Of a stretch of 64,000 nt of DNA, positions 21,046-54,140 are shown one piece after another. Every line of letters begins with the position of its first letter. The stretch's first letter is position 1. The notes beneath the pieces are model-generated. The model ran no database searches, was not told the DNA's origin, and saw nothing but the letters and a program-made list of their open reading frames with translations. The stretch lies in contig OZ250169.1 in NCBI GenBank assembly GCA_965237955.1, positions 736,001-800,000 of the forward strand, read 5' to 3'. The position numbers were made by a program, and so were the translations under genes. This DNA is from Candidatus Marinacidobacterales bacterium. Its GTDB lineage: Bacteria; Acidobacteriota; Vicinamibacteria; Marinacidobacterales; SMYC01.

Positions 21046-21048
21046 CCC

Positions 21049-35458: not shown

Positions 35459-36102
35459 GCGAGCGAGGGACCACAGCGTCGATGCGATAAAAACGGGTGA
35501 AACCGCCAAACCCGGGGTACCAGACGATGCGGCGCCAAAACGACGCGCGAGAATGCCTCAGGAAGCGTCTTCTCGAGCCAGGCCATACCCCAGCAACCCC
35601 CCGAAACCAGCCCCACATCGCCCGGGGTTCGGCCGCGGCAGGTCGCTGCCTACGGGAGCGGGAAGGTCGCTTCGCGTCTTTCCTTACGCCCGCTCCCTCC
35701 GGCACCGACCTGCCGCCCCTTGCTACACAACACGCAGGTAAGATAGGTTCACGTTTTCAATCAGTGGAAAGGAGGTCACCCAACACTTCATCGCTTCGAT
35801 GAGCGTTCGGCTTCACCGGATTCGCTGTTCAGCTTGCTCTGGATTCGGCGTTCACGATGGCTGGAATACGCATCGTAGTTCCATTCGCTGATCACGCTGA
35901 GATCGACCACCGATCTAGCCACCGAGTAGAATGTGTACTCGCCGCCGAAAACGGTAGCGAAGTAGTCTCTTCTACTCCCGACAGGTTGCGTGCCCCCGCG
36001 CGCTGAATCGCCTCCGGCTTCAAGAGCCAGGAGCCGGTCGTCATCTGGGCGTCCACCCCGAACTGGCGGATCTGCGCGTAGTCGTCCTGTGCCAAAACTC
36101 GC

Positions 36103-36411
36103 TGTGCCTTCTATTTATTCATCCGGGCGCCCCAAACTTGATTAGTCTCCGGTCTGCCGGCACCATGCCTGCTTGATTTCGTCGTTTGTTCGCGCTCTCA
36201 TCTCCGCCTTCAAGGCTCGTCGCGAGCTGGCTCTCGACAATGTCGCTCTTCGGCAGCAGCTCGCCGTCCTCCGCCGTTCGGTGAAACGGCCGCGGCTCTC
36301 GAACGTCGACCGCGGGTTTTGGGTAACTGTAGAGCCTAAGGGCCCTTGGCCCAGTCGCTAAGCTGCTGATTTATGGTCTATTTCAAAAGGGCTGAGTTTT
36401 GGCACAGGACG
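36103..36411 (+). mobile_element. 309-bp MITE, copy 2
   Basis: Near-identical to 10625-10933. Confidence 0.9.
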
Positions 36412-36553
36412 GGATTGGGTACGCATCCCCGAGGCTCCGACTAATCCCGAACGAAGGACCGTTGCGCCCCGATTCATTGGAGCAGGTGACGAAAACCTGC
36501 TACTCTCGTCGTTTCTAGAAACAACGACTTGGACCTGCGGTGGGTCTTACAAT

Positions 36554-37738
36554 ATGGACGCGGACACGGCCAAGAACTCATCTCCAAACAACGGCAAACT
36601 CTGTCCGCCAGCCGAGCCGGGGCGGTGGATTCACGTTTCCTACATAGGCTGTCTAGGCTGTCTCATTTATGTCATCCTTCTACCCATAGGTGGACTGCCT
36701 AACTATTTTCCTCAACAAACCCTCCTAGCCCACGCAGCTCTCGCGATCGTGCTGGTTTCGATAATCTTGGAGCAATACTTTAGTTACGGTACTAGAGTTC
36801 ACAAGCAACGGCTGGAGGACTGTAGCGTCGTGGAGGCTACTATCGTCGAAGCACGAACCGTAGCTCCGCGGCTAACGGAACCCGAAGTGAGACCGCACGA
36901 TTACGATCGGAAGCAAAAAGAACTGCAGGAAGAGGCCACTAGACTGGAAGATATAGGAAGTGAGTGTTGGACGGAGTATCAGATCCTGCCGCTAAGCCAA
37001 ATGCTTGTGGAATTTCTGGCCATTGATGACTTGAAAGAGCAAGCTAGGTCAAGCCTTTCTGATATCGAGGAATACGCGATCGACATTTCGTACCCATTGG
37101 ATATCCGTAGGTACGATCGTTGGGAAGAGCGAATCAACAACAAGATGGGCGAGATTGAGAAAGCGCGTGACCAACCCAAGGGAGTCGATCCTGACATTGC
37201 ACAGGACGACGCCGCCGAACCTTTACGGGCCGCTCTCCGGATGCTTCTCGAGCACGTCGCTGGCTACGAAAAGTACTGGGTTGAGGGAAGCGCATATCTT
37301 CGTAGTCTCATCACGTGTTCAGCGGTAGCGATCCCTGTTTTCGTAGCAATGGGACTGCTACCGCTTTGGCATCCGGGCGGGGACGGCCGGCTCGATTGGT
37401 TGCATTGGGCTCAGTTGGGAATCGCAGGTGCATTGACGGCCGTGTTGCTAGATTATCGGAGATCTGATGTCGTTGAAGTGGGCGTGACGGAGGGCCGAAA
37501 GGAACTGTGGCGTGCCGTCACAGGTTCAGTACTGGGGTCAGTTGCTGGCCTTCTCGTCTACGGCATGTTGCTCGGCGGCCTACTGGAGGGCAACTTGTTC
37601 CCTGAAGTATTGTTCTCTGAAACAGGAAGTGACACGTTGTCGCATGCGGGACGGTCCTTCTTCTGGGCCCTCTCAGCAGGATTCACTTTCGAAAAGGTAT
37701 TCGAACGTGTTCGTGGCGCACTGGGGCCAAATCAATGA
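36554..37738 (+). CDS. Hypothetical membrane protein: 2 N-terminal TM, soluble helical domain, about 4 C-terminal TM
   Basis: Hydrophobic segments YIGCLGCLIYVILLPIGG, AALAIVLVSIIL, AVAIPVFVAMGLL, LGIAGALTAVLL, VLGSVAGLLVYGMLLGGLL, FFWALSAGF. ATGA overlap with the next gene. Confidence 0.8.
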   Translation: MDADTAKNSSPNNGKLCPPAEPGRWIHVSYIGCLGCLIYVILLPIGGLPNYFPQQTLLAHAALAIVLVSIILEQYFSYGTRVHKQRLEDCSVVEATIVEARTVAPRLTEPEVRPHDYDRKQKELQEEATRLEDIGSECWTEYQILPLSQMLVEFLAIDDLKEQARSSLSDIEEYAIDISYPLDIRRYDRWEERINNKMGEIEKARDQPKGVDPDIAQDDAAEPLRAALRMLLEHVAGYEKYWVEGSAYLRSLITCSAVAIPVFVAMGLLPLWHPGGDGRLDWLHWAQLGIAGALTAVLLDYRRSDVVEVGVTEGRKELWRAVTGSVLGSVAGLLVYGMLLGGLLEGNLFPEVLFSETGSDTLSHAGRSFFWALSAGFTFEKVFERVRGALGPNQ

Positions 37739-38163
37739 AGGATCAACAAGTTCTTCGTTCTATTGACAAGAGTCCTGGCGAGCGGGTCGCGCACGAAGTG
37801 TATGGAGAGGAGCTCATTCTCGATCTGCACGGCTGCCAAACCGAGCGGTTTACACGAGCCGAGATTGCGCGCTTCTGCTCAGAGCTGTGTGAATTGATCG
37901 ACATGGAACGGTGCGATCTGCATTTTTGGGATGATGTAGACGTGCCTGTAGGTGAACGCCAAACGCACCCCAAGACAAAGGGAACGAGCGCTGTGCAGTT
38001 CATCCTCACGAGTACGATCGTCATCCACACGCTGGAGCTGATGGGTTCCGCGTATGTCAACATTTTTTCGTGCAAAGAATTCGATTCAGACGAAGCAGCC
38101 CGTTTTACGGCGAAGTGGTTTGAATCCACTGACTGGACAACCACCGTAGTAACCAGACGCTAA
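37735..38163 (+). CDS. Pyruvoyl-dependent S-adenosylmethionine decarboxylase-like proenzyme
   Basis: YGEELILDLHGC, GTSAVQFILTSTIVIHT (canonical G.S....L.ESH..IHT), NIFSCKEF. Confidence 0.8.
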   Translation: MKDQQVLRSIDKSPGERVAHEVYGEELILDLHGCQTERFTRAEIARFCSELCELIDMERCDLHFWDDVDVPVGERQTHPKTKGTSAVQFILTSTIVIHTLELMGSAYVNIFSCKEFDSDEAARFTAKWFESTDWTTTVVTRR

Positions 38164-38186
38164 CGGGCATCAGACTGGAGGTAAGA

Positions 38187-39554
38187 ATGGCTATGTTGTT
38201 GTTCGAGGAGCAATTTGAGGCTTCGGTGAACGTGAGGCATAACGGTCTTCTCGGACACCTCCGCGAATCCAGCGCACGGCAGTTGTCGAAGGACCTCGTA
38301 GCGGTCAGATTCGTGGTCACCTCTAGTACGTCGTCGGGTTATCAATGTGAGCTCGGGGCCATAACCGGCCTTGATGAAACCAGACATCGGTCAATCAGCT
38401 CCATCTTTAGATTCCAACGCCGACTCACCGAGAATGCCCAAGAGTTCAACGTCGTGCTTATGGTTCCCACAGGTGTGGGCTCGGAGATAGGCGGGCACGC
38501 CGGCGATGCCGCCCCAGTTGCCAGAATGCTGGCGGAAGTGTCCGACACGATCCTTCTTCATCCGAACGTGGTGAACGCGTCCGATGTCAACGAAATGCCA
38601 GAGAATGCCCTGTACGTTGAGGGAAGTGTACTGTGCCGCCTATTGATGGGCACAGTTGGGCTGCAACGAGTACGCTCGAATCGTGTTTTGGTCGTAATCG
38701 ATGCACACAGCGACGAACTTTTTGTGAACGCAGCCGTCAATGCTGTCAGTGGCGCTCGAGCCGCCTATGGTCTCTCATGTGCTGAGGTCGTCTGCCTTGA
38801 TCCGCCGGTGAAACTCCTAGCACGCTACGCTGCGTCTGGCAGGGCAGCGGGCCGCGTCGAGGACTTGGAAGGTTTGATCCAGCTACTCGATGATCGTGCT
38901 GGACAGTACGATGCCGTAGCCATCTCATCAGTTATCGACGTACCTGCGGAGTTTCACCAGGGCTACTTTGACGCGGGCGGGAAGATGGTAAATCCGTGGG
39001 GCGGAGTCGAAGCCATGCTAACGCATTCACTGTCAAGCCTTTATAACTTGCCCACAGCTCATTCACCGATGTTCGAGTCTCGAGAGATCGCCAACATGGA
39101 CCCGGGAATTGTCGACCCCCGAATGGCGGCGGAAGCCGTGTCGGCGACTTTCCTACAATGCACCTTGAAGGGTCTTCAAAGAAGCCCTCGCCTCGTTACA
39201 AGTCCACAAGCGATGAACGAGTCAGGGGTGTTCACAGCTTCGGACGTCTCGTGTCTCGTGATCCCAGACGGATGCTTAGGGCTCCCGACGCTCGCGGCGC
39301 TAGAACAGGGTATTCCAGTGATCGCCGTCCGAGAGAACCGCAACAAGATGAAGAATGATCTCTCCTCACTGCCCTGGGCTGCCGGCCAGTTTCATCAGCT
39401 CGAGAACTACTGGGAGGCAGCAGGAGTGATTGCGGCGATGCGCGCCGGGATCGATCCAGTTTCAGTCCGGCGGCCACTCGCCCGAACAACAGTGTCGAAG
39501 TTTGTTGCTTCCGATATGACTCGCGCCGGAAGACGCGGGTCGTATAATCTTTAG
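38187..39554 (+). CDS. DUF3326-domain protein with N-terminal extension
   Basis: VPTGVGSEIGGHAGDA, LHPNVVNAS, LYVEGS, WGGVEAMLTH, VDPRMAAE, IAVREN, NYWEAAG. RBS GGAGG upstream. Confidence 0.8.
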   Translation: MAMLLFEEQFEASVNVRHNGLLGHLRESSARQLSKDLVAVRFVVTSSTSSGYQCELGAITGLDETRHRSISSIFRFQRRLTENAQEFNVVLMVPTGVGSEIGGHAGDAAPVARMLAEVSDTILLHPNVVNASDVNEMPENALYVEGSVLCRLLMGTVGLQRVRSNRVLVVIDAHSDELFVNAAVNAVSGARAAYGLSCAEVVCLDPPVKLLARYAASGRAAGRVEDLEGLIQLLDDRAGQYDAVAISSVIDVPAEFHQGYFDAGGKMVNPWGGVEAMLTHSLSSLYNLPTAHSPMFESREIANMDPGIVDPRMAAEAVSATFLQCTLKGLQRSPRLVTSPQAMNESGVFTASDVSCLVIPDGCLGLPTLAALEQGIPVIAVRENRNKMKNDLSSLPWAAGQFHQLENYWEAAGVIAAMRAGIDPVSVRRPLARTTVSKFVASDMTRAGRRGSYNL

Positions 39555-39728
39555 TGTCCCTTCCGGGGATGGTAGAGACCTGTGCCTTCTATTTATTCAT
39601 CCGCGCGCACCGAATTTGACTAGTCCCTATACAAGCGCGATTGTGAGAAAAAAATAGGCCAGGGAAGAGAGACATCCTTTCGAGGCCTGCTAGCAGGAAA
39701 GCCGCTGCACGGCCTCGTTCGGCTACCC

Positions 39729-39946
39729 CGTCCTGTGCCAAAACTCCAGCCCTTTCGAAATAGACCACAAATCAGCGGCTTAGACGCCCTTGGAATCCGC
39801 GCAGAATCGAGGGTATTTCGCGCCGCAGGGTTGTCTTCCGACCCCTGGGCTGCGGGTGGCGAGCGAAGGCCCACCGGGGGTGCGCACGGCTGGCTCAAAT
39901 CGGCTGCGGGGCGAGCTACGGGCAGTGAAACTGCGCACCCGGAAGT
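39729..39946. repeat. Type-a end plus ~200 bp internal segment, repeated at 50316-50532
   Basis: Direct sequence match. Partial copies at 30480-30710. Confidence 0.85.
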
Positions 39947-39965
39947 CGTAAGGTCAAAATACTCA

Positions 39966-41334
39966 GGATCCGTCCCGCTTCCCGTGGAAATAAGAATGGC
40001 GTAACCTCCGGTTAAACAAAACGAAACCGCGCCTGGAAAGGCGAGGAGGAGGATTACGCCATGAAGAAGCCTACCACCATATCGAAGGAGTCTGTAAGCG
40101 AGTATCGGGAGTTCGTCCAACTTCGGCTGCGTAAGCGGGTACTGGAGGCAATCGAGGTCGTGCTCGAGGAAGAAGTCGACCAAGCGCTGGGGTGTGGTAG
40201 CTACGAGCGTGCGGAAGACCGCCGTGGATATCGCAACGGAGCCGAAACCCGTCGCGTGACGACGTCGGTGGGGACTCGGCGAGCTCCGGGTGCCACGAGC
40301 CCGCGTGCGAGACGAGGAAACGGGAGAAACGACAGAGTTCAGGAGCGAGCTGTTGCCCCGGTACGCGCGCCGGACTCGTGAGGTCGACGAGGCGATCTTG
40401 GGGACGTACTTGTCGGGCGCGAATAGCCGCCGGATCCGCAAAGCGCTGAAACCACTGCTCGGTGAGGAGCACCTATCGAAGAGCGCGGTGTCTCGCGTGG
40501 TTAGCCGGCTGAAGGAGCGCTTCGAGGAATGGCAGAACCGTGCTCTCAGCGAGGAGGTCTACGCGATCGTTTACCTGGACGGCTTCCACCTGAAAGTACG
40601 GATGGCGAAACGTGTGATCAGCGTACCCGTACTGGTCGCGCTCGGGGTCGCGCCAGACGGGCACAAACGTCTGTTGTCATTGCGTCTGGCGGTGAGCGAA
40701 GCCTCGACGCATTGGGGCTCCGTGCTGGAGGGACTCCAGGCTCGAGGACTCCGGGCTCCCAAGCTAGTGATCAGCGACGGCCACAAGGGGCTGACGAAAG
40801 CGCTGGAGAAGTGGCCGGGGTGCCGGTTGCAGCGATGTACCGAGCACAAGCGCGCCAACTTGCTCGAACATTGCCCGGCGCACGCACGCCGTGAGCTCCG
40901 GCGTGACTACAACCGGATCGTCTACGCCAAGAACGGGATCGATGCTCGCAAAGCCTATGACGAGCTCGTCGCCAAGTGGACGCCTCTCGCGCCGGCCGTC
41001 GTCCGAAGCCTAGAGGAGGCCGGTAATCAGCTGCTGACCTTCTACGAATTCCCTCGTGCCATGTGGAAATCGATTCGAACGACCAATGCTCTGGAGAATC
41101 TCAACCGCGAGTTTCGACGCCGGACGAAAACCCAAGCGTCGTTCTCCAGCGAGGAGTCCGCGGTCGCTTTGCTGTTTGGGCTTATCGCCTCTGGCCAGAT
41201 TCAACTACGACGCATCGACGGCTACCAACGTCTGAGCGAGGTTCTCGAACACGCGGAGGTTGCCGCCTGATCTGATACTCTGATGACGGAGTGGAGCGTG
41301 CCGTTCTTTTTCCACGGACCTCGGGACACATCCG
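39966..41334 (+). mobile_element. IS256-family element, frameshifted transposase 40061-41270, 8-bp TSD
   Basis: AATACTCA at 39958 and 41335. Motifs YRNG, VYLDG, ISDGHKGL, QRC..H, RTTNALE. Confidence 0.9.
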
Positions 41335-41408
41335 AATACTCATGCGGCTTCCCGATGGTAGAAACGTAGCAACCCGCCAAGCCGTTCACGGGAGCGCACC
41401 ATAGACAC

Positions 41409-42691
41409 TAAGTAGTCTTTTTCATAAGTACAGTGACGTATATTTAAGTTGCTGAAAGAGCGCCTCTCTGGCATGATTCTGCCCATTGGAGCAGATAAAT
41501 GCCTAGAGAATCGCCGTTTGACATTGAGTTGACCGTCGACGAGCACGATATCCTTGAAGAAACAGCCAGAGCATATACGTCACCGTATATCGATGTTGTT
41601 CGTGCAAAGATCATTCTGTATGCCGCCGAAGGCCTGACGAACAAGGAGATTGGAGAGCGCCTCGACACTCCGCGACAGATCGTGAGCAAGTGGCGGAAGC
41701 GTTTTTTCGACCAACGCCTGGCAGGGCTGCAAGAGCAGCCCCGCCGGGGGCGGCCCGGCCAGTTTTCCCCCCTCCGTCGTCGTCGCCGTAAAGGCTCTCG
41801 CGTGTGAGTTGCCGCACCAAACTGGACTGCCGCTCTCACGACTCAGCACCGCGGACCTCCGTCGAGCCGCGATCGACCGTGGGATCGTGGCGAACATCGG
41901 ACAGACGACCATCTGGCGTTGGTTGAGTGAGGACGCCATTAAGCCCTGGACCCATCGTAGCTGGGTGTTCCCGCGCGACCCGGACTTCGAAGCCAAAGCA
42001 GCTCCCATTCTCGACCTCTACCAAGGACGTTGGCGTCGTAAGCCCTTCTCTGGAAACGAGTTCGTCATCAGCGCCGATGAGAAACCCCGTATCCAGTGCC
42101 GGCTTCGCACATACCCGACGACTTCGACGGCTCCAGGGCGGCCGATGCGCATCGAGCATGAGTACTCTCGTGAAGGCACGGTGAACTACCTTGCCGCATG
42201 GGATGTTCACCGCGCGAAAGTCTTCGGTCATTGCGAACCGAAGAGCACGATCGTCTCCTTCGAGCGCTTCGTCGGGCAAGTCATGCGTCGCAAGCCCTAT
42301 CGCACCGCGAAGCGAGTCTTCTGGATCGTCGATAACGCTTCCATTCATCGCGGCAAAGCTTCTGTCGAGCGCTTCCGGCAACAGTGGCCTAATTCCGTAC
42401 TCGTTCATACCCCAACCCATGCCAGCTGGCTCAATCAAGTCGAGATCTTCTTCTCTATCGTTCAAAGAAAGGTCCTCACCCCGAACGACTTCTTGGCACC
42501 CGACGACATCCCTTTCCATCTTTCCAAGTTCGAACGCTACTACGAGGACATCGCTCGACCCTTTCAATGGAAATTCACCCGCAAAGACCTCAAACAGCTG
42601 ATGAAACGCCTTGCCGTATACGAACCTCGTCTTGCTTCCGCCGCTTGACCGTTGAAAAATACGTCACCGAACTTTCGGGATAGCGTACTTA
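41409..42691 (+). mobile_element. IS630-family element (ORFs 41499-41807 and 41809-42648)
   Basis: TA-flanked AGTA...TACT ends. HTH plus SADEK, IVDNASIH, HASWLNQVEIFFS. Confidence 0.88.
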
Positions 42692-42741
42692 GCGGCTGAT
42701 TTATGGTCTATTTCAAAAGGGCCGAGTTTTGGCACAGGACG

Positions 42742-43147
42742 GGGTGCATTGGTACAACACGCAACGACTCTTGGAGCCGATCGGAAATGTCGCCCCCGTC
42801 GAGTACGAGATGAACTACTATCGGTCGCAGGAAGGCTCGCTAGAGATGGCGAGACTCAACTAAAACAGTCTCCGGAAAACCAAACGACGTGGGAGCTCAC
42901 ACCGGGCCGCATCATCAACCGATGCTACGAGCACGCCTCGACAGTGTTGACGTCCAACAAGAGCTTCGAAGAATGGGGGGCCGTCATGGGCGATGAGGTC
43001 CACCAATCAGCCTCAAACTGGCCCCAATTCCCTGTCCTGGTTTCCAGACAAGATCGCGTAGCTCCTTGTACTGGACGGAGTCATCTGCGTCTCCTCTGTA
43101 AAGCTCCGCTGGATGAATTCGAGATTTGGCCAATTCGAATTCCGCTC
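42742..43147 (+). mobile_element. Patchwork of IS3 end, istB fragment and recombinase-element downstream sequence
   Basis: 42745-42880 resembles 16230-16360. IINRCYEHASTVLTSNKSFEEWG is IstB-like. 43000-43147 matches 52739-52888. Confidence 0.7.
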
Positions 43148-43228
43148 AGACCGAGTCTGGACCCGGAAGATCCCCCTTGATAGTCATAGTCCCGCAGCCT
43201 CGCAATGACACACTTGTTAGGTGCTGCA

Positions 43229-45749
43229 TCAAGCGATCTGGGCCTTCAGATAGTTTACGAACGATGTACATGAAAGTAGAAAGTAACGAGCGTCCGCCGC
43301 AGTGAGTGTTGGTTCGTCGAGCATCGCATGACGGATGCCGTCCGCGTCGCTCGTGTATCCGTACAGCTTAATGAAGCCATCCTTCAGCGCCTCCCCTCTG
43401 TGCCAACCTCCTTGAGACACTTCGCCCCTTGAAATTAGTGTAGAGGGCGGAGGAGGATCATGAATGACTACGTTGATTGAGAGAATGACCCCGGCGGGAT
43501 CGGAAGGAGCCCGTAGGGCGACTGCAGATCGCGCCGGCCGCGATGCGGCAGGGGTCCCGGATCCCGAAGTGAGTGAGCAAGCGAAGCGTCGACGCTTTAC
43601 CGCAGAGTACAAGCTGCGGATAGTGCGCGAGGCCGATGCTTGCAAGGGTGACGGGGATGTTGCGGCTCTTCTGCGTCGAGAGGGACTGTACTCGCCGCAT
43701 CTTTCGAGTTGGCGTCGCCAACGTGACAAGATTGCCAAGGCGGGGTTGACATCGAGGAAGCGAGGACGGAAGGCGAAGGCAGAGGATCCACGGGTCAAGG
43801 AGCTCGAGCGCGAGAACGCGCGATTGAAGCATCGCCTGGCTCGGGTGGAGACGATGCTAGAGATCCAAAAAAAAACCTCCGAACTTCTGGGGATCCCCCT
43901 GAATCCACCAGACAGCGACGAGAACGATTGATGGTGGCGGCCGAGGAGCTGGCGGGACGAATTGGACAGACGGCGGAAGCCTGCGAGGCCCTTGGAATAG
44001 CTCGCTCCACGTTGTATCGCAGGCGCCAGACGGTGACGTCCAATGCGAAACGCCGCCCTCGGTCGCACCGAGCCCTCGATGTGACCGAACGTGAGCTGGT
44101 TCTCGGTGCCTTGCACTCCGAGCGGTTCGTCGACAAGGCGCCCGCTCAGGTGTGGGCCACGCTCCTGGACGAGGGAATCTACTACTGCTCGATCCGCACG
44201 ATGTATCGGATTCTGGCGGAGAACGGAGAGGTCCGAGAGCGCCGGAACCAGCTGCGACATCCGAATTATCAAAAGCCGGAGCTGCTGGCCGAAGCGCCGA
44301 ACCAGGTTTGGTCGTGGGATATCACCAAGCTGCGTGGCCCCGTCAAGTGGACCTACTACTACCTCTACGTGATTCTGGACATCTTCTCCCGTTACGTGAC
44401 CGGGTGGATGTTGGCTCGACGAGAAAGCGCTGAGCTCGCTCGTCGTCTCATCAGCGAGAGCTGCCGCAAACAGAACATCGAACCAGACCAGCTCACCATC
44501 CACGCCGACCGTGGCAGCTCGATGCGAAGCAAGTCCGTAGCTATGCTCCTGGCTGACCTCGGCGTTACCAAGACCCACTCCAGACCTTACGTCTCGAACG
44601 ATAACCCCTACTCCGAGTCCCAGTTCAAGACTCTGAAGTATTGCCCTCAGTTTCCGAGCCGTTTTGGTTCCATCGAAGACGGCCGGCTGTTCTGCGGCGG
44701 CTTCCTCGACTACTACAATCACGAACGCCGGCACGCGGGAATCGGCCTCATGACACCGGCCGCCGTTCACGATGGTCTCGCGGAACAGCTCACCACTGCC
44801 CGGCGCCAAATCCTCCTCGAAGCTCATCGGGCTCATCCCGAACGCTTCGTTCGCGGAATGCCACAGCCCCCCGTTTTGCCTCCTCAGGCCTGGATCAACC
44901 CGCCGCCGGAGAAAACGACGCGCCAGGAGGCCGCCGGAGCCACTTTCTCGAGGTGGTCCACACCTGGGGTACCCCCGGATTCAGGCCAACGCGACCAGAT
45001 CTCGCCGCACGCAGACGGTGACCGCCCCGGGCCCACGAGTCTTACTGCATTGATTGAGGCTCACTAAATGCAGTCCGCGGGTGTCTCAAAGTTGTTGACA
45101 CGTTCCGCTCATGCAGCAATCCATTCTTTTCTATCGCCTTGAGAGCGTCACTCAACGTGGCCTTTGGCTTTTCCGAAACAATTCTGGCCATGCTTTCGAC
45201 TGCCAAGATTGACTCTTTGATTGAGTTCCTATAGTCAGGGTTCTCGCGTTTGGCGTACAGGTCCAATGCCTGTTGTATGTGAGCGCCAACGCCAGCGAAC
45301 CGGGAGTCCGCAAGAACCGTTTCCAGCATTTCGCGTTCTTGGGCATTTGTTATGTCTGTGATGTGTCCAGACACAAAGCGGTATCCTGACAACTCCCGCT
45401 CAAGAGTACGGTTGAAGGATTCGAGTTGCAGTTCGGATTTGAAGTACCCAACAACAAATTCGAGAAAGTCGTACACTTCAAACCACTCGCACCCAAAAAA
45501 ATGCTCTCGAATGTGTGCCAGAATTAGGTCGTTATCCTTGGGCCTCGAATCAATTGGTTTCTTGAAGAAGTCAGACCACAATGCTTCGCTGAATAATTCT
45601 ATTAAGCCGTGGTTCAGGGACTGATCCTGGAGCCATAGCTCCACGGTGAGTGTGTTCCAGAGAGAATTCCGTAGTTCGGAATTCATCGAGTCAATCTGGA
45701 TGACTTCCGAGACCGGCTTGAGTCCCTTCCGATGACTGAATGGCTTCAT
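43229..45749 (-). pseudogene. AbiJ-NTD4-like/HEPN abortive-infection protein interrupted by an IS3-family element
   Basis: MKPFSHRKG...LRNSLWN...WFEVYDFLEF...DYRNSIKESI...LLHE joins ALKDGFIKLYGYTSDADGIRHAM when 43394-45107 is removed. Confidence 0.75.
43394..45107 (+). mobile_element. Complete IS3-family element (orfA 43464-43931, orfB 43928-45067), 3-bp TSD CTC
   Basis: RRRFTAEYKLRIV, WSWDITKL, HADRGSSM, DNPYSESQFKTLKY. Subterminal IRs TTGAGACAC / GTGTCTCAA. Confidence 0.9.
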
Positions 45750-45992
45750 TTTCGCAACAGATTCTCTCAGGTCCAGGCGGCGCGCGTTGGCGACGATCTC
45801 GTTGCCATGAAACGCCTCGTGTCGACCACCGCACGCCGTCGTGTCCGAAAATACGAACGGAGCCGGAAAACTCGAATCCTAGAGGCGTTCTCAAAATTCG
45901 CAGAGACCAGCCGACGTGGCACTGGCTCTGTGATAGGCGCTCCCGAGCAGACCTCTTATTCTAGCTCCCATTGCCAACCAAGCCTAGACACC

Positions 45993-46301
45993 TGTGCCTT
46001 CTATTTATTCATCCGGGCGCCCCAAACTTGATTAGTCTCCGGTCTGCCGGCACCATGCCTGCTTGATTTCGTCGTTTGTTCGCGCTCTCATCTCCGCCTT
46101 CAAGGCTCGTCGCGAGCTGGCTCTCGACAATGTCGCTCTTCGGCAGCAGCTCGCCGTCCTCCGCCGTTCGGTGAAACGGCCGCGGCTCGCGAACGTCGAC
46201 CGCGGGTTTTGGGTAACTGTAGAGCCTAAGGGCCCTTGGCCCAGTCGCTAAGCTGCTGATTCATGGTCTATTTCAAAAGGGCTGAGTTTTGGCACAGGAC
46301 G
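45993..46301 (+). mobile_element. 309-bp MITE, copy 3
   Basis: Near-identical to 10625-10933. Confidence 0.9.
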
Positions 46302-46554
46302 GGGGTGAAGTCAGTCAAAGAGGAATGTCTCTCGAAGCTCATCCTGTTCGGCGAGAAGTCGCTCCGTCATGCGCTTAGGGAGTACGTCGTCTACTATCAC
46401 CACGAGAGGAATCATCAAGGCAAGGAGAATCTACTGCTGTTCCCAGCCAGCGACCAGTTACCTCAGTCCGAGCGCAAGGTGTGCTCCCGTGAACGGCTTG
46501 GCGGGTTGCTACGTTTCTACCATCGGGAAGCCGCATGAGTATTTTGACCTCACG
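46302..46554 (+). mobile_element. rve transposase 3' fragment with end
   Basis: VKEECLSK...ERNHQG...RERLGGLLRFYHREAA, then GAGTATTTTGACCTCACG. Confidence 0.85.
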
Positions 46555-46621
46555 GAGTGATCAGACTTACCGAATTGTCTGGTCGGGTGGCGTCAATCCG
46601 CTGCTCAATTACATCAGCCAT
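46555..46621 (-). pseudogene. First ~22 codons of a probable DUF3326 paralogue, cut by an element end
   Basis: MADVIEQRIDATRPDNSVSLI starts 19 bp after the decarboxylase stop and aligns weakly with MLLFEEQFEASVNVRHNGLL at 38193. Confidence 0.4.
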
Positions 46622-46640
46622 GCTTTATCGCACTTTCCCC

Positions 46641-47028
46641 TTAGTGCCGAACTACTACGTTCGCCGTCCAGTTCGCAGAGCCAAACCACTCGGCCGTAAA
46701 CTGAGCCGCTTCATCCGTCGAATTTCTTGCACGAGAAGATATTGATGTAGGCGGACTTCATCAAATCGAGCGTGTGAATCACAATTGTGCTCGTGAGAAT
46801 GAATTGGACGGCGCTGGTTCCCTTCGTCTTGGGATCAGTTTGCTGGTCTTCGTTGGGCACACCGAGATCATCCCAAAAATAGAGATCGCAGCATTCCATG
46901 TCGATTACTTCACAAAGCTCTGAACAACACCGTTCAATATCAGCGCGTGTAAACGTGCTTGAGTCGCAGTCGTGCAAATCTAAAATGAGTTCCAATCCGT
47001 AATGATCTGTTTGTACGGTTGTTGTCAT
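46641..47028 (-). pseudogene. Second SAM-decarboxylase-like gene, frameshifted near 46715
   Basis: Highly similar to 37735-38163 (identical PKTKGTSAVQFILTSTIVIHTL). The shifted frame continues DEAAQFTAEWFGSANWTANVVVRH*. Confidence 0.85.
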
Positions 47029-47053
47029 CGGCTCCGCACCAAGAAACTGTCTA

Positions 47054-47210
47054 ACAGCCCGTCGCGAAAGTCATCCAGCAGCGAAAAATAGAGGCTGTCA
47101 CCAATTCGCCGCCCCCCCGGTCATAGCCTTAGAAACAAAGTGCTTGGACTGAAGCGAATTGTCTGGCTGTATCCGTTTTTTTTGCGACGTATACTTCCAT
47201 CAGAGGCTTA
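47054..47210. mobile_element. ~156-bp MITE inserted at the HNH stop codon
   Basis: CTA(A) repeated at 47051 and 47211. Imperfect IRs CAGCCCGTCGCGAAAGT / AAGCCTCTGATGGAAGT (10/17). Confidence 0.55.
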
Positions 47211-48056
47211 CTAACCCTCTCCGTGTGCAAGATCGAACAGCGGAGTGTATCGCGACAATGACTTCTTGAGGGCAAAGCGTCGAGCCAATGCAAACGTCAA
47301 AGCGCCAGAACGAACCTCCTCCAAGTACTGCCACTTCTTTGGGACATCGGGGCTGTTAGCGCCCAAGCATGTCACGTACATATGTACAGCATTCTCTGTG
47401 TCTTCGATAGCCTTCAACCTGTCTTTGATCAGCGCTTCACGGATATTCAAACCCAAAATGCGAATAAACACCTTGCCTCTTTCTGATTTTTCTCTGAGTA
47501 TTCCCGTCTCATCTATAGAGAGATGTTCAGCCGGTTCATCCACCAGCGGATTTAACAGGAGTGGTTGCTCATTCACCTCACCTCCCGGTTCGGTCGCATG
47601 TTTTCCATCCACCGGGAACCGCGCCCCCTTTCCTACTGGGACGCCTCCGTGCTTCTTCGCGTTGATTCGGTTGCAGTCGATGCACGCATAAAGGAGATTT
47701 GACCACTCGTACGTTAGCCAGTAATAGCCCGGATGAGGAACCTCCTCTCCACCGTTCGAATCTACCATAACGGGACTTTGATCTTCGTGAGTCACCTTGC
47801 CCTTTGGCCGATAGTGCTCAATGTCGCCTGGTTGGGTGCTCTCGATTCGACCCTCGCAGTACGCACACTTGCCAAAAAATGGCGGTCCATCGTGCTTGTA
47901 AACCGCCGTCATGCGGGAATCCTTGTACAGATTAATGAGTTGGGCATCTTCACCGTTCCGGACTCGTTCAATCACAGCATCACGTTCCAACTGGCACTCA
48001 TTACACCACTCTTTCCAATCGTCGGAATCCGGTTCCACTAATTCCAGCTTAATCAC
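47211..48056 (-). CDS. HNH endonuclease (PtuB/retron-effector-like)
   Basis: GKCAYCE, DIEHYRPK, GYYWLTYEWSNLLYACIDCN, PLLLNP. Confidence 0.85.
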   Translation of the reverse strand: MIKLELVEPDSDDWKEWCNECQLERDAVIERVRNGEDAQLINLYKDSRMTAVYKHDGPPFFGKCAYCEGRIESTQPGDIEHYRPKGKVTHEDQSPVMVDSNGGEEVPHPGYYWLTYEWSNLLYACIDCNRINAKKHGGVPVGKGARFPVDGKHATEPGGEVNEQPLLLNPLVDEPAEHLSIDETGILREKSERGKVFIRILGLNIREALIKDRLKAIEDTENAVHMYVTCLGANSPDVPKKWQYLEEVRSGALTFALARRFALKKSLSRYTPLFDLAHGEG

Positions 48057-49378
48057 GAATCGCCTTCATCAAATATCTCGGTGAGCTGTCTCCTCGCTTC
48101 GAGATCCAAAGCCTCCAGCGTCACGTTGCCACTCGTAATTGCGTCGGCAGCCAGTCTCTCTAATGTCTCTCGTACCGCCTTGCGAACGTACGCCTGAAGG
48201 GTGCTCTCGTTTTGGCTGAATGTGTCCACGAGTCCATCATGCAGCCCTTGAAGTTCTTGTTCTTCCTCTGGTGTGCGCTGGCGCTTGCTTGACAGGTCGG
48301 AATAGCGCCCCACATCTTGTGTGACCTGATCACTGGTCGTGGATACAAGACCGAACAAGTGAGAGGTCAGTACCTGGTCTGCGCGGAGATTGCGAGGGGG
48401 ATACAAGTCCTTCCGCACGGTGAGGTTCGATCCCGACAGCTCCAACAGTATGAGCTGACACAGCTCGTCAGCTAGAGCTGACGAGCCAATAGCCACTAAA
48501 GGTGCGTGTGTTGTCGTGATGAATTGAATGCCAGGAAACTCCTTGGCAAGTCGGCCGATGATTACCCTTTGCCAGTAGGGATGCAGATGTTTTTCAAGTT
48601 CATCTATTAGTACTATTCCTTCAATTCGTGTCGCGAATTTATTTTGCCTGCTAAGAAGTGACCATCCAAGTAGGTCACAGACCCACGCAATTGTGGCGAC
48701 GTATCCGTCACCCAATGCCCCGAGTGGTACGAACTCTCCCCACGGCCCACGAACTTTAAGACCGGAAGAATTTAGAGTTGTCGCTCCGGGAGGCAAGTTC
48801 AAAACACGATCGACGAGCGTGAGCAGTTCGTCTTGTGAGGTCTCCGCGTTACGTAGAATCCGATACAGTGCAGTTTCTGGATTCTGAAGGCGCGAGTCGT
48901 AGTTGAAGAGAGAATAAACAGCGTCGACTACGCGATATTTTTCATATACTTCGTTTCCCACAGATCGGACGGCTGCGCCGTATCCGCAAGCAAACAATTG
49001 TGACCGCGGGATGCCATTGGATTCGGCCTCCTGCTTAACATCTTCATTTCCATCATCGTTTTTTCTGAAAGTCGTTGTAATCGTATAGGCTATGCCTGGG
49101 TCCGTGCTGGAAAAGAGTTTGATCTCAATGATGGCTTCGCTGGAGCCCGTCCGGATGATTTCTCCAGACATTTCCGTTAGGAGGCCGGATGCTCCGGTTT
49201 CGTCGCAAAGCCCCATCGCAATCGCACGGAGAAGGCTCGTCTTACCGGTACCGTTGTCACCGAGAATTAAGGTCCAGCTTGCTTGCTCTTGGTCTTGCGA
49301 CGGAGGGACCAGGTCGATCACCGTTTCCCCTTGGAAACATCGCACATCAACTAGTCGTATGCTGGATATGTAGAGCAT
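48053..49378 (-). CDS. ABC/AAA ATPase (PtuA-like)
   Basis: GDNGTGKT Walker A, LGDGY signature, VLIDELEKHLHPYWQ Walker B, QFITTTHAP. 4-bp overlap with the HNH gene. Confidence 0.88.
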   Translation of the reverse strand: MLYISSIRLVDVRCFQGETVIDLVPPSQDQEQASWTLILGDNGTGKTSLLRAIAMGLCDETGASGLLTEMSGEIIRTGSSEAIIEIKLFSSTDPGIAYTITTTFRKNDDGNEDVKQEAESNGIPRSQLFACGYGAAVRSVGNEVYEKYRVVDAVYSLFNYDSRLQNPETALYRILRNAETSQDELLTLVDRVLNLPPGATTLNSSGLKVRGPWGEFVPLGALGDGYVATIAWVCDLLGWSLLSRQNKFATRIEGIVLIDELEKHLHPYWQRVIIGRLAKEFPGIQFITTTHAPLVAIGSSALADELCQLILLELSGSNLTVRKDLYPPRNLRADQVLTSHLFGLVSTTSDQVTQDVGRYSDLSSKRQRTPEEEQELQGLHDGLVDTFSQNESTLQAYVRKAVRETLERLAADAITSGNVTLEALDLEARRQLTEIFDEGDS

Positions 49379-49454
49379 GCTTCGTCTCGCTTTGTTGCTT
49401 AATAGAGTCCGATCCCCTCCTGCAGATTATAGAGCAGAAAACCCAGAGGCCAAA

Positions 49455-50065
49455 GGCTGTGATCCGCAAAAAGAAACTCGCGTATCGACGTGGGGATTGC
49501 AGTTCGGAGATTTTGTCGAAATCGGGACGATGTCCACGTCGTTTTCCTTCAGGACTTCTCGAAACTCTGTTGTGTATTTCGAATCTCGGTCGGTGATGAG
49601 GTGCGAGTAGCCTCGGAGAAAGCTGTCGTCGAACGCGGCAAGGTCGAGCGCTACTTGTTTCATGAAGACTCGGTCCGGGGTGAACTTCTGGTCGCGGTCC
49701 AAGATGAGCAATCGCTTGCCACGCAGAAAGCGCTCGAGCGGGTCGGTGAGATTCCGACCGACCTGCATCATGAACGCGCCGTCCGGCCTGGGAGTGATTC
49801 CGGCAATGTGCACTTTTCGCGAAGACAGCTCGATGACGACGAGCACATAGTAGGTCACGAGCCTGCGGACCGTGGCGACCTCGACGGTGAAAAAGTCGGT
49901 CGCAGCAATGGTTTCCCAATGGGCGGTGAGAAACGTGCGCCACGGTGTCCGTTCACCTCTCTCCGGCGCAGGCTCGATACCGTGTTCTCGCAGAATATTG
50001 GCGATGGTGCTCCTGGCTACCGTATGGCGGAGATTCGAGAGGGCACCGCGAATGCGTGTATACCT
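49455..50065 (-). pseudogene. Scrambled rve transposase fragments
   Basis: TRIRGALSNL, AATDFFTVEV, LDRDQKF, then a second overlapping ITDRDSKY segment. Confidence 0.75.
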
Positions 50066-50579
50066 GTCCCTTCCATAAACTCGAGCTTGCATGAGATTGG
50101 CGAACTGCCCGCAACCAGGACGCTTTGGTCGTCTTCATGTAGGACGTTTTTAGAGCCGGCGTCGGCTCTACTCAGGGGTAGAGGTGTAAGCTGGTGCGAA
50201 GTCCCACAGCCATTCCGAGCAGGTCGGACTCAAGCAGCGCTTCGAGTGTAATAATGATGGAGACCACCGACCTTTGGAATGGCACTGACTTTGCCCATCG
50301 CCGGTGACTCTACCCCGTCCTGTGCCAAAACTCGGCCCTTTTGAAATAGACTACAAATCAGCAGCTTAGACGCCCTTGGAATCCGCGCAGAATCGAGTGT
50401 ATTTCGCGCCGCAGGGCTGGCTTCCGACCCCTGAGCTGCGGGTGGCGAGCGACAGGCCCACCGGGGGTGCGCACGGCTGGCTCAAATCGGCTGCGGGGCG
50501 AGCTACGGGCAGTGAACTTCGCACCCGGAAGTCCCTCATTAGACTGGACTTTATCGAGCACAAGAGCGAACGTTCGGTG

Positions 50580-51011
50580 ATGCCGCAGGATACAGGGGTT
50601 GGCCGGAACGTCGTTTTGGACGGTTTGGACTTCGCCAGCTTACGGCGGGTCTGGGAGCAGACCTTTGGGGCTGCTCCTCCAAGCTCGCTCTCGCGTGTTT
50701 TCCTGCGCCGCGTTCTCTTGCACGAACGCCAGTGCCGGACCCATGGCGGGCTTTCGGCCGCAACCCGGCGCGCTCTGGCTGCCATGGCGAACGAGACACC
50801 AAGCTCCGGCGCTCCCGCAGGGTCCGTTTCTGCCGGCACCCATCTCGTCCGCGAGTGGAATGGCCGGACCTACCAGGTCGAGGTACTCGACAACGGCTAT
50901 CGGTTCGATGGCAAAACCTATCCGTCCCTCACTACCATCGCAAAGCGAATCACCGGCACCCACTGGTCAGGACCACGCTTTTTCGGTCTCACGCCCAAGC
51001 GCAAGGCCTAA
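50580..51011 (+). CDS. DUF2924-family protein
   Basis: GTHLVREWNGRTYQVEV...SLTTIAKRITGTHWSGPRFFGL. Confidence 0.85.
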   Translation: MPQDTGVGRNVVLDGLDFASLRRVWEQTFGAAPPSSLSRVFLRRVLLHERQCRTHGGLSAATRRALAAMANETPSSGAPAGSVSAGTHLVREWNGRTYQVEVLDNGYRFDGKTYPSLTTIAKRITGTHWSGPRFFGLTPKRKA

Positions 51012-51012
51012 C

Positions 51013-52674
51013 ATGAAGAAGATCCGCTGTGCCATCTATACGCGAAAGAGTGCGGAAGAGGGTCTCGAACAGGAGTTCAACTCCCTCGATGCGCAGCGAG
51101 AAGCCTGCGCCGCGTATGTCGCGAGCCAGAAAGCGGAGGGCTGGGTGCTGCTGCCAACCGTCTACGAGGACGCGGGGCTCTCGGGAGGAACCCTGGAGCG
51201 CCCGGGCCTCCAGCGCTTGCTCGCCGACATCGACGCAGGTCTCGTCGACCAGATTGTGGTCTACAAGGTCGACCGGCTGACCCGTTCCCTCTCCGACTTT
51301 GCGAAGCTCGTCGAGCGGCTCGAGGCGGCCGGCGCGGTTTTCGTCTCGGTGACTCAGTCCTTCAACACCGCGACCAGCATGGGACGACTGACGCTGCATA
51401 TGCTGCTGTCCTTCGCACAATTCGAGCGGGAGGTCACGGCCGAGCGGATCCGCGATAAGGTCGCTGCCTCCAAGCGCAAGGGACTATGGATGGGCGGCCG
51501 CGTACCGCTAGGCTATGAGAAGGACGAGCGCACGCTGCGCATCAACGAGGCTGAGGCCGAAACGGTCCGGACGCTCTATGCGCTGTACCGGAAGCACGGA
51601 ACGCTCCGGCAGGTGAAGGCCGACGCGGACCGTCTGAGACTGCGCACCAAGCAACGCTTCGCCGCGGATGGAACCCGGACAGGCGGGCTGCCGTTCCGTC
51701 GCGGACACCTTCACTGCCTACTGACCAATCCTCTCTACGCCGGCCGCATCCGGCACCAGAGGTGTGTCTACGAGGGCCAGCATCCATCGATCATTGCTCC
51801 GGAGCTCTGGGACGCGGTCCAGGCGCAGCTGCAGGCAGGGGCTGCCAAACCAAGGAGACGCACGACGAAGGGCCGTGCAGCCCGTTCCCCACTGGCAGGC
51901 AAGCTCTTCGACGAGACCGGGGACCGGCTGACGCCGAGCCACACCAAAAAGAAAAACGGGCAACGGCTCCGCTACTACGTCTCCCGGCGCCTCATCCAGC
52001 ACAGTGGCCAAAAGGACCTCTCCGGCTGGCGACTGCCCGCCCCGATGCTGGAACAGACCGTCTTGCATCTCATCCGACAGCATGTGGATGCCACGACCTT
52101 CTCGGCCTCGTTGATCCACACTCCGACGATGCAAGAGCTCGCCTCGGTGCGTCGCTTTTTAGACGGGCTGTGTTCCGGTACTAATGATGATAGTGCCTCG
52201 GCAGCCCCCCTGCTCCGTCTTATCCGGCGGGTCGACATCAGCCCCGGCTCTGTGTCCATCCTGCTCGACCGCAATACGTTCGCTGCTTGCCTCTCTATGG
52301 GACCCGAACGCATTCGCGAGGATGCACTCCGCATCCACGCACCGTTCCGCTTGCGTCGACGCGGCGTCGAGACCAAGCTCGTTCTGGGCAACCCCACGAA
52401 ATCCGTCGACCGCACACTCCTGCGCAATATCGCCAACGCCCTCTCCTGGCTCAACCGAATCAAAGCAGGCAAAACCTATGAGCAGATTGCCACCGAAAAC
52501 GCCATCCCAACGGACCGCGTGCGCAAGGCAATCCGTTATGCCTTCCTGGCTCCCGACATCGTCCGCGCCATTGTCGAAGGCCGCCAGCCCGTTGGGCTGA
52601 CCTCGAGCTACCTCTTGAATCATCCGCTTCCCGACGATTGGGAGAAACAGCGAGTGCTCGTCAAAACGCTGTGA
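51013..52674 (+). CDS. Large serine recombinase
   Basis: RCAIYTRKS, SLDAQRE, SGGTLERPGL, VYKVDRLTRS, FAQFERE, NPLYAG. Confidence 0.93.
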   Translation: MKKIRCAIYTRKSAEEGLEQEFNSLDAQREACAAYVASQKAEGWVLLPTVYEDAGLSGGTLERPGLQRLLADIDAGLVDQIVVYKVDRLTRSLSDFAKLVERLEAAGAVFVSVTQSFNTATSMGRLTLHMLLSFAQFEREVTAERIRDKVAASKRKGLWMGGRVPLGYEKDERTLRINEAEAETVRTLYALYRKHGTLRQVKADADRLRLRTKQRFAADGTRTGGLPFRRGHLHCLLTNPLYAGRIRHQRCVYEGQHPSIIAPELWDAVQAQLQAGAAKPRRRTTKGRAARSPLAGKLFDETGDRLTPSHTKKKNGQRLRYYVSRRLIQHSGQKDLSGWRLPAPMLEQTVLHLIRQHVDATTFSASLIHTPTMQELASVRRFLDGLCSGTNDDSASAAPLLRLIRRVDISPGSVSILLDRNTFAACLSMGPERIREDALRIHAPFRLRRRGVETKLVLGNPTKSVDRTLLRNIANALSWLNRIKAGKTYEQIATENAIPTDRVRKAIRYAFLAPDIVRAIVEGRQPVGLTSSYLLNHPLPDDWEKQRVLVKTL

Positions 52675-53895
52675 GCCTGCCAGCGCCCACTTCGTGAATG
52701 GGCTCGGTTAGCAGCAAGCTGCTCTCCGACACTGGCCTCCACCAATCAGACTCAAACTGGCCCAAATTCCCTGTCATGGTTTCCAGACTCGGATAGCTCC
52801 TTGTACTGGACCGTCTGCGGAGTCATCTTCGTTTCCTCCGTAAAACTCCGCTGGATGAATTCGAGGTTTGGCCAATTCGAATTCCGCTATTCGCCCTCTC
52901 CTCAGGCGCGATCTAGGCATTGAGCGTCTTCTCATTGTCTGCGCGATTAAGTGCAAAAAACGACACCATAAGCCCTAAAATCGCACGAAATTGCATGCTA
53001 AGGGCCTCTTTTGCTCTGTTTCTGATCGTTTTCAGCCTAGAACCAGAAGCTCCAGTCGCCCCCACTCGAGCCTGCCGACTGCGATAGCCGGAAAGGTGTC
53101 CCGTCGACGAACATTCGCTGATGAGACGTAAAGCCTTTTATAACAATAAGTAACGGCCGTAGGTGCCTCCGGAGGGTTTACGACACGGCCCTCTTTCAGG
53201 CGTCCAGGAGGTTGAGATTGCCGTATAGAAAATTTAATTGAAGCAAATTCAATTCCGGCTCGAACGACCACCCGTCGATGATGCGTGCGGGGACCAGCAC
53301 GTGACGGAGGCCGTTAAATCGCTGTAGGGGAAGAGGATAGAAGGAAATGGGCACCAAGGTTGAAACCCGAGAGCACGTAAAACAGCCTTCTCCCGAAACC
53401 TGTGTACGCATCAAAAAACTCAAGAAATGCGCGAAACTCGAAACCTCCTGAATCTCCACTGGCTTTTCTGTTTGAGGATTTCCGCCAAAAGCTGGACCAC
53501 TTTTTGCCGAGACCGGATAGCTCCAACCTGCACCATCCGCCACCCAGTCTGGCCAATTGTGGCACTGCAGAGACGGATGAGATTTTCCGCGCGGTTGGCG
53601 GGGTTTTGCAAGGGTAGGTGGCACCAGAGACGCGCTAGAAGGGCGGAACGGGCCTCATTTTCGGTATTCGTCTCTAATTCCGATTTTCGAGTGCCACGTT
53701 TGCGCTAAAGGGGAGAACGGGCGCTGACCGGGCCGTGCGGCGGCGGAAAAGAGGCCACCCGAGAAGCCCAGAATCGAGGCCGGGGATACCGCAGCGTAGC
53801 TCGCCTAGCACGTTCTGGTCCAAGGTGCGGCCCTGGCCTACTGGATTTCCATCTTGCCCCAGGCCCGGATCCAGGGTCTTCGCCCGGGAGCATGG

Positions 53896-54140
53896 AAGCC
53901 CGGCTCGGAGCACACGGTTCTCCTCTTGCAGGTAGTCGATCACATCCTGCTGCTGGCGGTTGACCCAGCCAGCTAGAACGAGCACTAGGAATTGCACGTG
54001 GTACGTCATCATGGATCTGAAGATAACACCCTCGGGCCAGACGATTGTAAAGCCTACGGCCCTTGGCCCCGGCGCAAACACAGACACTAAGCTGCTGATT
54101 TATGGCCTATTTCAAAAGGGCCGAGTTTTGGCACAGGACG
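53896..54140 (-). mobile_element. rve element 5' stub with type-a end
   Basis: Matches 15636-15852. Confidence 0.8.

Follow-up and report, generated by a model that had tools for sequence, protein, structure and literature searches.

Why would a nuclease pair of the anti-phage type be encoded together with the remains of two metabolic enzymes? This question is raised by a 64,000-nucleotide stretch of the genome of Candidatus Marinacidobacterales bacterium (assembly GCA_965237955.1, contig OZ250169.1, positions 736,001 to 800,000; hereafter the window, with positions counted from its first letter), where a PtuA-like ATPase gene and a PtuB-like HNH nuclease gene are followed by a disrupted decarboxylase gene and by the first codons of a DUF3326 gene. 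This arrangement, designated locus 2, represents a copy in decay of an operon of four genes, which is widespread and encodes the PtuA-like ATPase, the PtuB-like HNH nuclease, the decarboxylase, and the DUF3326 protein. At a distance of 7 kb, locus 1 (36554-39554, plus strand) contains an intact decarboxylase-DUF3326 core with a different effector. Distribution and gene order suggest that the operon family is an undescribed defence system, with effectors that are likely under the control of a small molecule, probably a polyamine-like one. Loci elsewhere are given below as L numbers and the genomes as G numbers.

The effector half of locus 2, located on the minus strand, is free of decay. It starts with the intact gene of a PtuA-like ABC ATPase of 441 amino acids (48053..49378), which matches the PADLOC model of PtuA with an E value of 3.8e-62 and, in profile comparisons, the PtuA chains of the PDB (retron PtuA and the stand-alone PtuA 8ee4) with E values of about 1e-26. 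The GTG start of the intact PtuB-like HNH nuclease gene (47211..48056, 281 amino acids; PADLOC PtuB, E 9.1e-44) overlaps the ATPase stop; the match of this nuclease to NF041761 (E 2.6e-12) is under the cut-off of that model. At the conserved columns, the ATPase shows no deviation (0/89) and the nuclease a single one (1/49). A promoter-like site, TTGGCC-16-TATAAT (49426..49453, minus strand; 10/12 matches), is found 48 nucleotides ahead of the ATPase start, in a scan performing at chance level (three sites found, 2.8 expected).

The third gene is a pseudogene of a pyruvoyl decarboxylase with the fold of S-adenosylmethionine decarboxylase (AdoMetDC) (46641..47028, minus strand; PF02675, E 1.5e-10). 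It starts at 47028 and runs into a premature TGA at 46711, while the C-terminus is encoded in another frame up to the TAA at 46643-46641. Compared with the closest homologue, L022 (77% DNA identity over 356 nucleotides), the frameshift appears as a gap of 2 nucleotides at about 46715. An assembly artefact was considered and rejected because contigs from three of the four public runs (X1, X2, and X4, from two samples and two studies) carry the same letters at this site without any gap; the fourth run overlaps it by 9 nucleotides only. An ATG at 46621, located 19 nucleotides past the natural decarboxylase stop, opens the first 22 codons of the fourth gene (46556..46621, minus strand), encoding MADVIEQRIDATRPDNSVSLIT. 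In an ungapped alignment with the N-terminus of the fourth gene of L007, which occupies the same operon position, 10 of these 22 residues are identical (BLOSUM62 score 49). This score was reached by none of 5000 shuffles and by one of 1712 starts of other long open reading frames; this lone start, scoring 109, is most likely located inside the stub region itself. By this comparison, the stub is the true start of a DUF3326 gene. It resembles L007 and L004, not locus 1, against which the best ungapped BLOSUM62 score is 2.

The remainder of the gene was lost to the end of a multi-copy mobile element, a fragment of which (46218..46555) is present in approximately 30-80 genomic copies across its stretch. 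At the element end at about 46555 there are some 40 genomic copies, other copies leaving loose ends at 46555; the junction itself is crossed by just 30 letters on the element side and has weak support. A tblastn search of the assembly with DUF3326 returned one match, locus 1, and nothing of the missing part. One element fragment flanks both loci, at 36083-36420 and 45970-46305, in inverted orientation. The decarboxylases of loci 1 and 2 are 75% identical. Identities of 67-82%, as seen among the top 119 homologues, are the background of the family, and the two genes are therefore best regarded as independently acquired. The background-level identity, together with the likeness of the stub to L007 and L004, rules out locus 2 as a recent duplicate of locus 1.

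Much of this had been proposed from the letters of the window alone. That sequence-only reading had given the coordinates and the minus-strand order of ATPase, HNH nuclease, decarboxylase, and ATG-initiated stub, all of which hold, and had recognized a PtuA/PtuB-like pair, which is borne out by the PADLOC matches. Its frameshift at about 46715 is real, and its view of the two decarboxylases as homologous yet diverged, excluding recent duplication, agrees with the identity values. It had also taken the stub for a DUF3326 N-terminus on a weak alignment with locus 1; the assignment stands through the match to L007, while the alignment with locus 1 proved negligible. Comparing the stub with the fourth genes of intact operons, as that reading had advised, led to DUF3326 and not to an unrelated family.

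Locus 1 starts with the gene of an all-helical membrane protein of 394 amino acids (36554..37738, plus strand; pLDDT of the model, 91.8), which belongs to an unnamed family, has no match in Pfam, PADLOC, or NCBIfam, and is a candidate second effector. It is followed by an intact pyruvoyl decarboxylase of 142 amino acids (37735..38163, plus strand; PF02675, E 4.4e-15), deviating at none of 65 conserved columns, and by an intact DUF3326 protein of 455 amino acids (38187..39554, plus strand; PF11805, E 2.8e-94; pLDDT 91.6). The latter is of the long form, which possesses an additional N-terminal domain of about 85 amino acids. Two other PF02675 genes of the genome, located elsewhere, score better and are more SpeD-like.

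The spread of the complete operon became evident when the decarboxylase of locus 2 was used as a query against GTDB genomes, yielding 78 loci; partners were sought within 8 kb. DUF3326 is present in 72 of them and a PtuA-like ATPase in 37, representing 13 named phyla. In 35 of these 37 loci the ATPase is encoded upstream of the core on the same strand; the other two are L029, where PtuAB is convergent on the opposite strand, and L010, where it comes after the core. The membrane protein of locus 1 is found in 8 of the 78 loci and HD-type partners in 7 (five HD-like proteins with a small upstream gene, two HD proteins with a CxxCxxCC gene). For the reverse test, 41 ATPases picked by sequence alone were aligned and used to scan metagenomes. 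The best 80 of 393 relatives were taken, a further one was found among 301 genomes of the phylum, and 55 of the loci were informative, that is, with at least 1500 nucleotides of downstream sequence. The core is present in 40 of the 55, represented by the pyruvoyl decarboxylase or DUF3326 in 37 and by an NspC-like gene at the contig end in three; L146, with a pyridoxal phosphate (PLP)-dependent decarboxylase of another type, was counted as core-less. In the ATPase tree, core-linked proteins are spread throughout, while core-less ones are confined to a few nested branches, and the nearest relatives of the ATPase of the window (L015, L090, L091, L017, L018, and L039) are all core-linked. The ordered linkage extends throughout the sampled ATPase subfamily, at identities of 33-58%.

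Which effector accompanies the core has changed repeatedly. A DUF3326 tree was calculated from 41 long proteins, comprising all 8 membrane-linked ones, all 6 full-length HD-linked ones, and 27 chosen PtuA-linked ones. The membrane label requires six changes on this tree, at least four of them forced by strong branches, and a single clade of the 8 membrane-linked cores is rejected (p-AU 1.5e-13). DUF3326 proteins which are 70-77% identical adjoin either PtuAB or the unrelated membrane protein, and that of locus 1 itself has its nearest relatives among the PtuA-linked proteins (77%). What stays constant, in many uncultured bacteria, is the core of decarboxylase and DUF3326, whereas PtuAB, membrane, and HD-type partners have been swapped repeatedly. 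Thus, the idea of one core serving unrelated effectors, put forward in the sequence-only reading, is carried by gene order and trees; the uninterrupted four-gene operons it had called for exist, and the finding that would have spoken against it, closest ATPase homologues never having the core, did not materialize.

The membrane and HD partners are candidate effectors. The membrane protein family is compact (202 clusters at E<=1e-10) and without a decisive relative in sequence and fold searches, the latter giving generic helical bundles only. Among 803 genomes of three classes, it has four matches, all core-adjacent, and no core-less copy; these four are the genome of the window and three core-linked loci already in the set, hence no independent case. 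A third partner type before the core, of approximately 520-670 amino acids and with an HD-like motif, occurs in L033:5868-7965, L035, L058, L062, and L074; four loci have the small upstream gene, and Pfam, NCBIfam, and PADLOC gave no match. A fourth type, an HD protein plus a CxxCxxCC gene, is found in L048:6805-7984 and L051:2753-5635, the latter with an additional ParA-like gene. An intact effector beside a broken core, together with a second intact core, is seen in the genome of the window, in G526, and in G1081; in two further broken-core cases the effector is broken or gone, too. L054, a candidate for a lone broken core with intact effector, was discarded, the break being a run of N.

Concerning the reaction catalyzed by the core, it is informative that three unrelated decarboxylase folds pair with DUF3326. 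Besides the AdoMetDC-like pyruvoyl enzyme, these are an NspC-like PLP enzyme in 8 ATPase-linked loci of metagenomes (match to TIGR01047 under its cut-off, E 1e-52 to 1e-105) and a phosphatidylserine-decarboxylase-like (PSD-like) enzyme, which occupies the slot in 11 viral loci. This swap fits a requirement of DUF3326 for one particular reaction and not for a preserved protein surface. In the pyruvoyl enzyme, S93, H98, and C113 are invariant (for S93 and C113, this was determined over 30 sequences). Their aligned counterparts in T. maritima SpeD are the Ser, His, and Cys involved in processing; we take the three residues to be the pyruvoyl-forming, the processing, and the catalytic residue, respectively. 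The Glu-Ser-His processing motif is changed to Thr-Ser-Thr/Asn, the WPE motif is missing, and the score against TIGR03330 is 28.3 bits at a cut-off of 75.65. No spermidine synthase was matched among the 78 neighbour proteins scanned. The AdoMetDC fold has switched repeatedly to ornithine or arginine (PMC10407285, PMC9992855).

In the model of the locus-1 DUF3326 protein, a Rossmann-like domain is split and an alpha/beta domain is inserted. Invariant in the family are a Gly-rich loop, PTGxGxxxGGHxGD, and numerous acidic residues. The best VIA-align comparison (Z 10.1, rmsd 3.2, 135 residues aligned) is among generic Rossmann-like and lumazine-synthase-like matches, and sequence and fold searches found no close solved relative. 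The one published clue to function comes from the 2026 preprint on PavA and PavB (10.64898/2026.06.12.731819), according to which the DUF3326 protein PavB and the carboxynorspermidine-decarboxylase-like PavA are both required for N-(5-aminopentyl)pentane-1,5-diamine, a triamine built from lysine/cadaverine. DUF3326 would catalyze a nucleotide-cofactor-dependent condensation of amines. Two optional genes accompany the operon elsewhere, neither of which is present in the genome of the window. One, MfnB-like (4-(hydroxymethyl)-2-furancarboxaldehyde phosphate (4-HFC-P) synthase), adjoins the operon in 10 of the 78 loci and in 17 of the 80, in nearly all cases immediately ahead of the effector (e.g., L008:5098-5832); in L024, an MfnB-like fragment precedes the membrane gene. 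The other, NDT-like, is located downstream of DUF3326 in 8 loci (e.g., L047:7942-8760). In L059:9724-11271 and L065, a cyclase-like protein with helical repeats (by eye, without Pfam match) is encoded directly after DUF3326.

The core is also carried by viruses. Among 77 viral DUF3326 loci, 71 contain a decarboxylase (60 pyruvoyl, 11 PSD-like), and none of the 77 contains the ATPase, the membrane protein, an MfnB-like, or an NDT-like gene. Most viral DUF3326 proteins are of a short form without the N-terminal domain and group in a branch of their own; a PSD-like gene together with long-form DUF3326 is found on viral contigs, several of them large (L188-L193, L208, L227, L230, L235, and L180). 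DUF3326 has no match among 72,556 plasmid records or in the GenBank phage collection. It is known that phages synthesize polyamines or acetylate them (PMC9992855). Viral carriage would agree with a product that represses and that phages provide or interfere with, and also with a plain amine supply.

Given this scenario, it is predicted, with somewhat better than even confidence, that a diffusible polyamine-like product gates the swappable effectors of a modular anti-phage system. By analogy with PavA/PavB, DUF3326 would condense an amino acid and/or a diamine, and the decarboxylase would either provide the diamine or strip the carboxyl group from the condensed product, yielding a triamine. The product would diffuse and act on the effector, and this mode of action would account for the exchange of unrelated effectors. 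It would be made constantly and hold the effector off; this is the least certain step, repression being considered somewhat likelier than activation because of two precedents and the phage carriage. In retron Ec78, PtuAB is a toxic unit restrained by its partner (PMC12819146), and Panoptes serves as the example of a signal that represses (PMC12657218). Upon infection, the phage would deplete, acetylate, or sequester the product, thereby releasing tRNA or DNA cutting or membrane damage, and enzyme copies borne by phages would be counter-defence or mere amine supply. In the genome under study, locus 2 would have lost its core to frameshift and element while keeping its effectors, which may be served in trans by the intact locus 1. 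The most far-reaching version, offered tentatively and at clearly less than even confidence, is that of a self-made polyamine as immune signal: DUF3326 and any of the three decarboxylase folds would produce a triamine guarding PtuAB, the membrane effector, and the HD enzymes, and phages would carry both enzymes to satisfy the guard.

Several observations weigh against gating by a core product. Twenty-six of the 78 loci have none of the PtuA, membrane, or HD-type partners, although many contigs are short, and several loci of the candidate phyla radiation (CPR), of archaea, or of prophage-like nature carry the core alone. The same holds for the 71 viral loci with core and no effector; taken together with the occurrence of DUF3326 in a cyanobacterial ferredoxin cluster (PMC4284462), they imply roles of the core outside defence. 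Conversely, 15 of the 55 informative ATPase relatives are without a core nearby, so that the core is not obligatory for the PtuA lineage. Four of these 15 (L110, L113, L139, and L171) have no N-terminal extension either, indicating that PtuAB of this lineage is able to exist on its own, as Septu does. In seven of the 15, on the other hand, TIR or Roc-COR-TIR is fused N-terminally in place of the core (according to Pfam), which counts in favour of gating; two more have other N-terminal extensions. Near-identical contigs (e.g., L093-L095 and L096-L098) are contained in the counts. PADLOC recognizes neither the membrane protein nor the HD partners. The pattern of a second intact core, while in line with gating, is seen in three genomes and does not tell activation from repression.

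Such solitary cores and effectors would be expected if the operon combined two independent defences, with PtuAB acting as an ordinary Septu and the polyamine slowing phage DNA replication or supporting the infected cell. In P. aeruginosa, the replication of phages is inhibited when polyamines accumulate (10.1101/2022.04.01.486733), and defence genes are often nested in one another (10.1101/2024.01.29.577857). Against mere co-residence stands the tight, ordered linkage across the sampled ATPase subfamily, which outlasts the change of the decarboxylase fold, as well as the tendency of core-less branches to acquire TIR or Roc-COR domains; moreover, that phages bear the same enzymes is a poor fit to a directly antiviral product. 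Two independent defences are considered unlikely, though the likeliest of the alternatives to gating.

Less probable still is direct sequestration as in retrons, where DUF3326, perhaps by its N-terminal domain, or the decarboxylase would bind the effector and, acting as a protein, sense the phage, the chemistry being secondary. Type I-A retrons do restrain PtuAB through direct contact (PMC12819146), and effector-linked DUF3326 proteins have the domain of about 85 residues which is lacking in most phage forms. However, long-form proteins are also encoded by some phages and by loci lacking these effectors, closely related DUF3326 proteins adjoin either PtuAB or an unrelated membrane protein, and the replacement of the decarboxylase by unrelated folds fits a conserved reaction. 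From this swapping pattern, control by a diffusible molecule is favoured over retron-like direct binding. To about the same low degree, one might think of a toxin-antidote cassette by which mobile islands would be retained, the amine or the enzymes neutralizing a toxic gene irrespective of phages. Both loci are located among many insertion elements, presence is patchy, and a second core exists in all three cases of intact effector and broken core; yet PtuAB is an established anti-phage effector, DUF3326 is absent from the plasmid records searched, and viruses encode the core and not the toxins. Very improbable, finally, is a self-marking according to restriction-modification logic, by which the amine would be attached to DNA or tRNA as a shield from the HNH nuclease: phage-borne cores could shield phage nucleic acid and the NDT-like gene follows the core in 8 loci, but no recurrent transferase, kinase, or thymidylate-synthase-like gene is present among the neighbours scanned, and the membrane effector would be left unexplained.

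Like Septu, locus 2 encodes an ABC ATPase followed by an HNH nuclease, both recognized by the PADLOC models of PtuA and PtuB. It is not a stand-alone pair, since its operon adds the decarboxylase and DUF3326 (sometimes with MfnB-like and NDT-like genes), and this type of core also serves non-Septu partners. Septu acts against phages with a nuclease that ATP inhibits; for the four-gene operon, a defence role is predicted. With type I-A retrons (Ec78/Eco7, Ec83) it shares PtuAB in an operon with a separate, likely controlling module, which here consists of two metabolic enzymes instead of a reverse transcriptase (RT). The PtuA of Ec78 has about 550 amino acids against 441 of the window ATPase, which scores 99.6 bits at an Ec78 cut-off of 500. 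As already stated in the sequence-only reading, there is no reverse transcriptase at the locus: RVT_1 has no match in the window, and the five matches of the genome are at least 170 kb away. A profile built from three RTs of this genome, which retron RTs could escape, matched in 2 of 235 related loci, both off-operon and one of them a group II intron RT. Rfam gave no match in 34000-54000; retron RNAs are poorly covered by such RNA libraries. The core may, as that reading had proposed, occupy the regulatory place of the retron over PtuAB.

In layout, the operon family is similar to Panoptes (OptS/OptE) and CBASS, where a core making a small molecule is combined with exchangeable, unrelated nuclease or membrane effectors. 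There, the core is a nucleotide cyclase (mCpol, CD-NTase), whereas AdoMet_dc plus DUF3326, with a predicted amine as product and no PADLOC match, is found here. The pavABC pavettamine cluster (10.64898/2026.06.12.731819) has in common with the 8 NspC-type ATPase-linked loci a DUF3326 protein and a carboxynorspermidine-decarboxylase-like domain, the likeness to PavB resting on the shared Pfam domain DUF3326. PavA is fused to a Rieske domain and PavC is a JmjC protein; since neither domain occurs in the loci of the window or the scanned neighbours, the decarboxylase-DUF3326 operons would not represent a hydroxylated toxin pathway, and the pair is tied to defence effectors instead. With Class 1b SpeD and its ornithine and arginine decarboxylase offshoots (PMC10407285, PMC9992855), the decarboxylase shares the fold and, in the alignment, the Ser giving rise to the pyruvoyl group together with the His and the Cys downstream of it, whereas its partner is DUF3326, not spermidine synthase, and its motifs are altered. 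A defence-linked decarboxylase-DUF3326-PtuAB system is not described in the literature searched, outside of which were closed papers and preprint supplements, and none of the DUF3326 literature found concerns defence.

Both loci reside in an island of many insertion elements, which also harbours a type I restriction-modification operon (HsdR, HsdM, HsdS-like; 18583-24188, plus strand) and an AbiJ_NTD4/PDC-S32 candidate defence gene (45042-45749, minus strand; E 7e-74), which breaks off at around residue 214, where a multi-copy insertion element has truncated it. DUF3326 is patchily distributed, being present in 3 of 61 related genomes. Both the neighbouring defence genes and this patchiness count in favour of the anti-phage reading. 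In one related genome (L002:534-2685), a 5'-truncated DUF3326 gene is found beside a CAP12/TIR-like nucleotide-binding gene (by eye) with the same element ends. Among the PtuA relatives, fusions to TIR or LRR-Roc-COR-TIR (L109:1925-5935, L138:2-2530, L164:4143-6005, L129:3-1790, L137, L155, and L156) mostly precede an HNH gene and lack the enzyme core; they are possibly a separate, undescribed Septu branch. In L080:6625-7977, PtuB has a nuclease-like extension of about 230 amino acids (by eye) overlapping decarboxylase remains, the core being lost.

Summarizing, the three-way decarboxylase swap points, independently of any defence role, to a testable reaction for the uncharacterized DUF3326. 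The genome of the window provides a natural test of the scenario, since it has intact effectors deprived of their core and, at a distance of 7 kb, an intact core that is joined to a different effector. The signal-controlled anti-phage systems in the papers considered (retrons, Panoptes, CBASS) use nucleotides or nucleic acids. If the proposed gating is true, PtuAB would have a second natural way of being regulated besides retrons, and an amine-controlled system would tie polyamine metabolism, which is manipulated by phages, directly to immunity.

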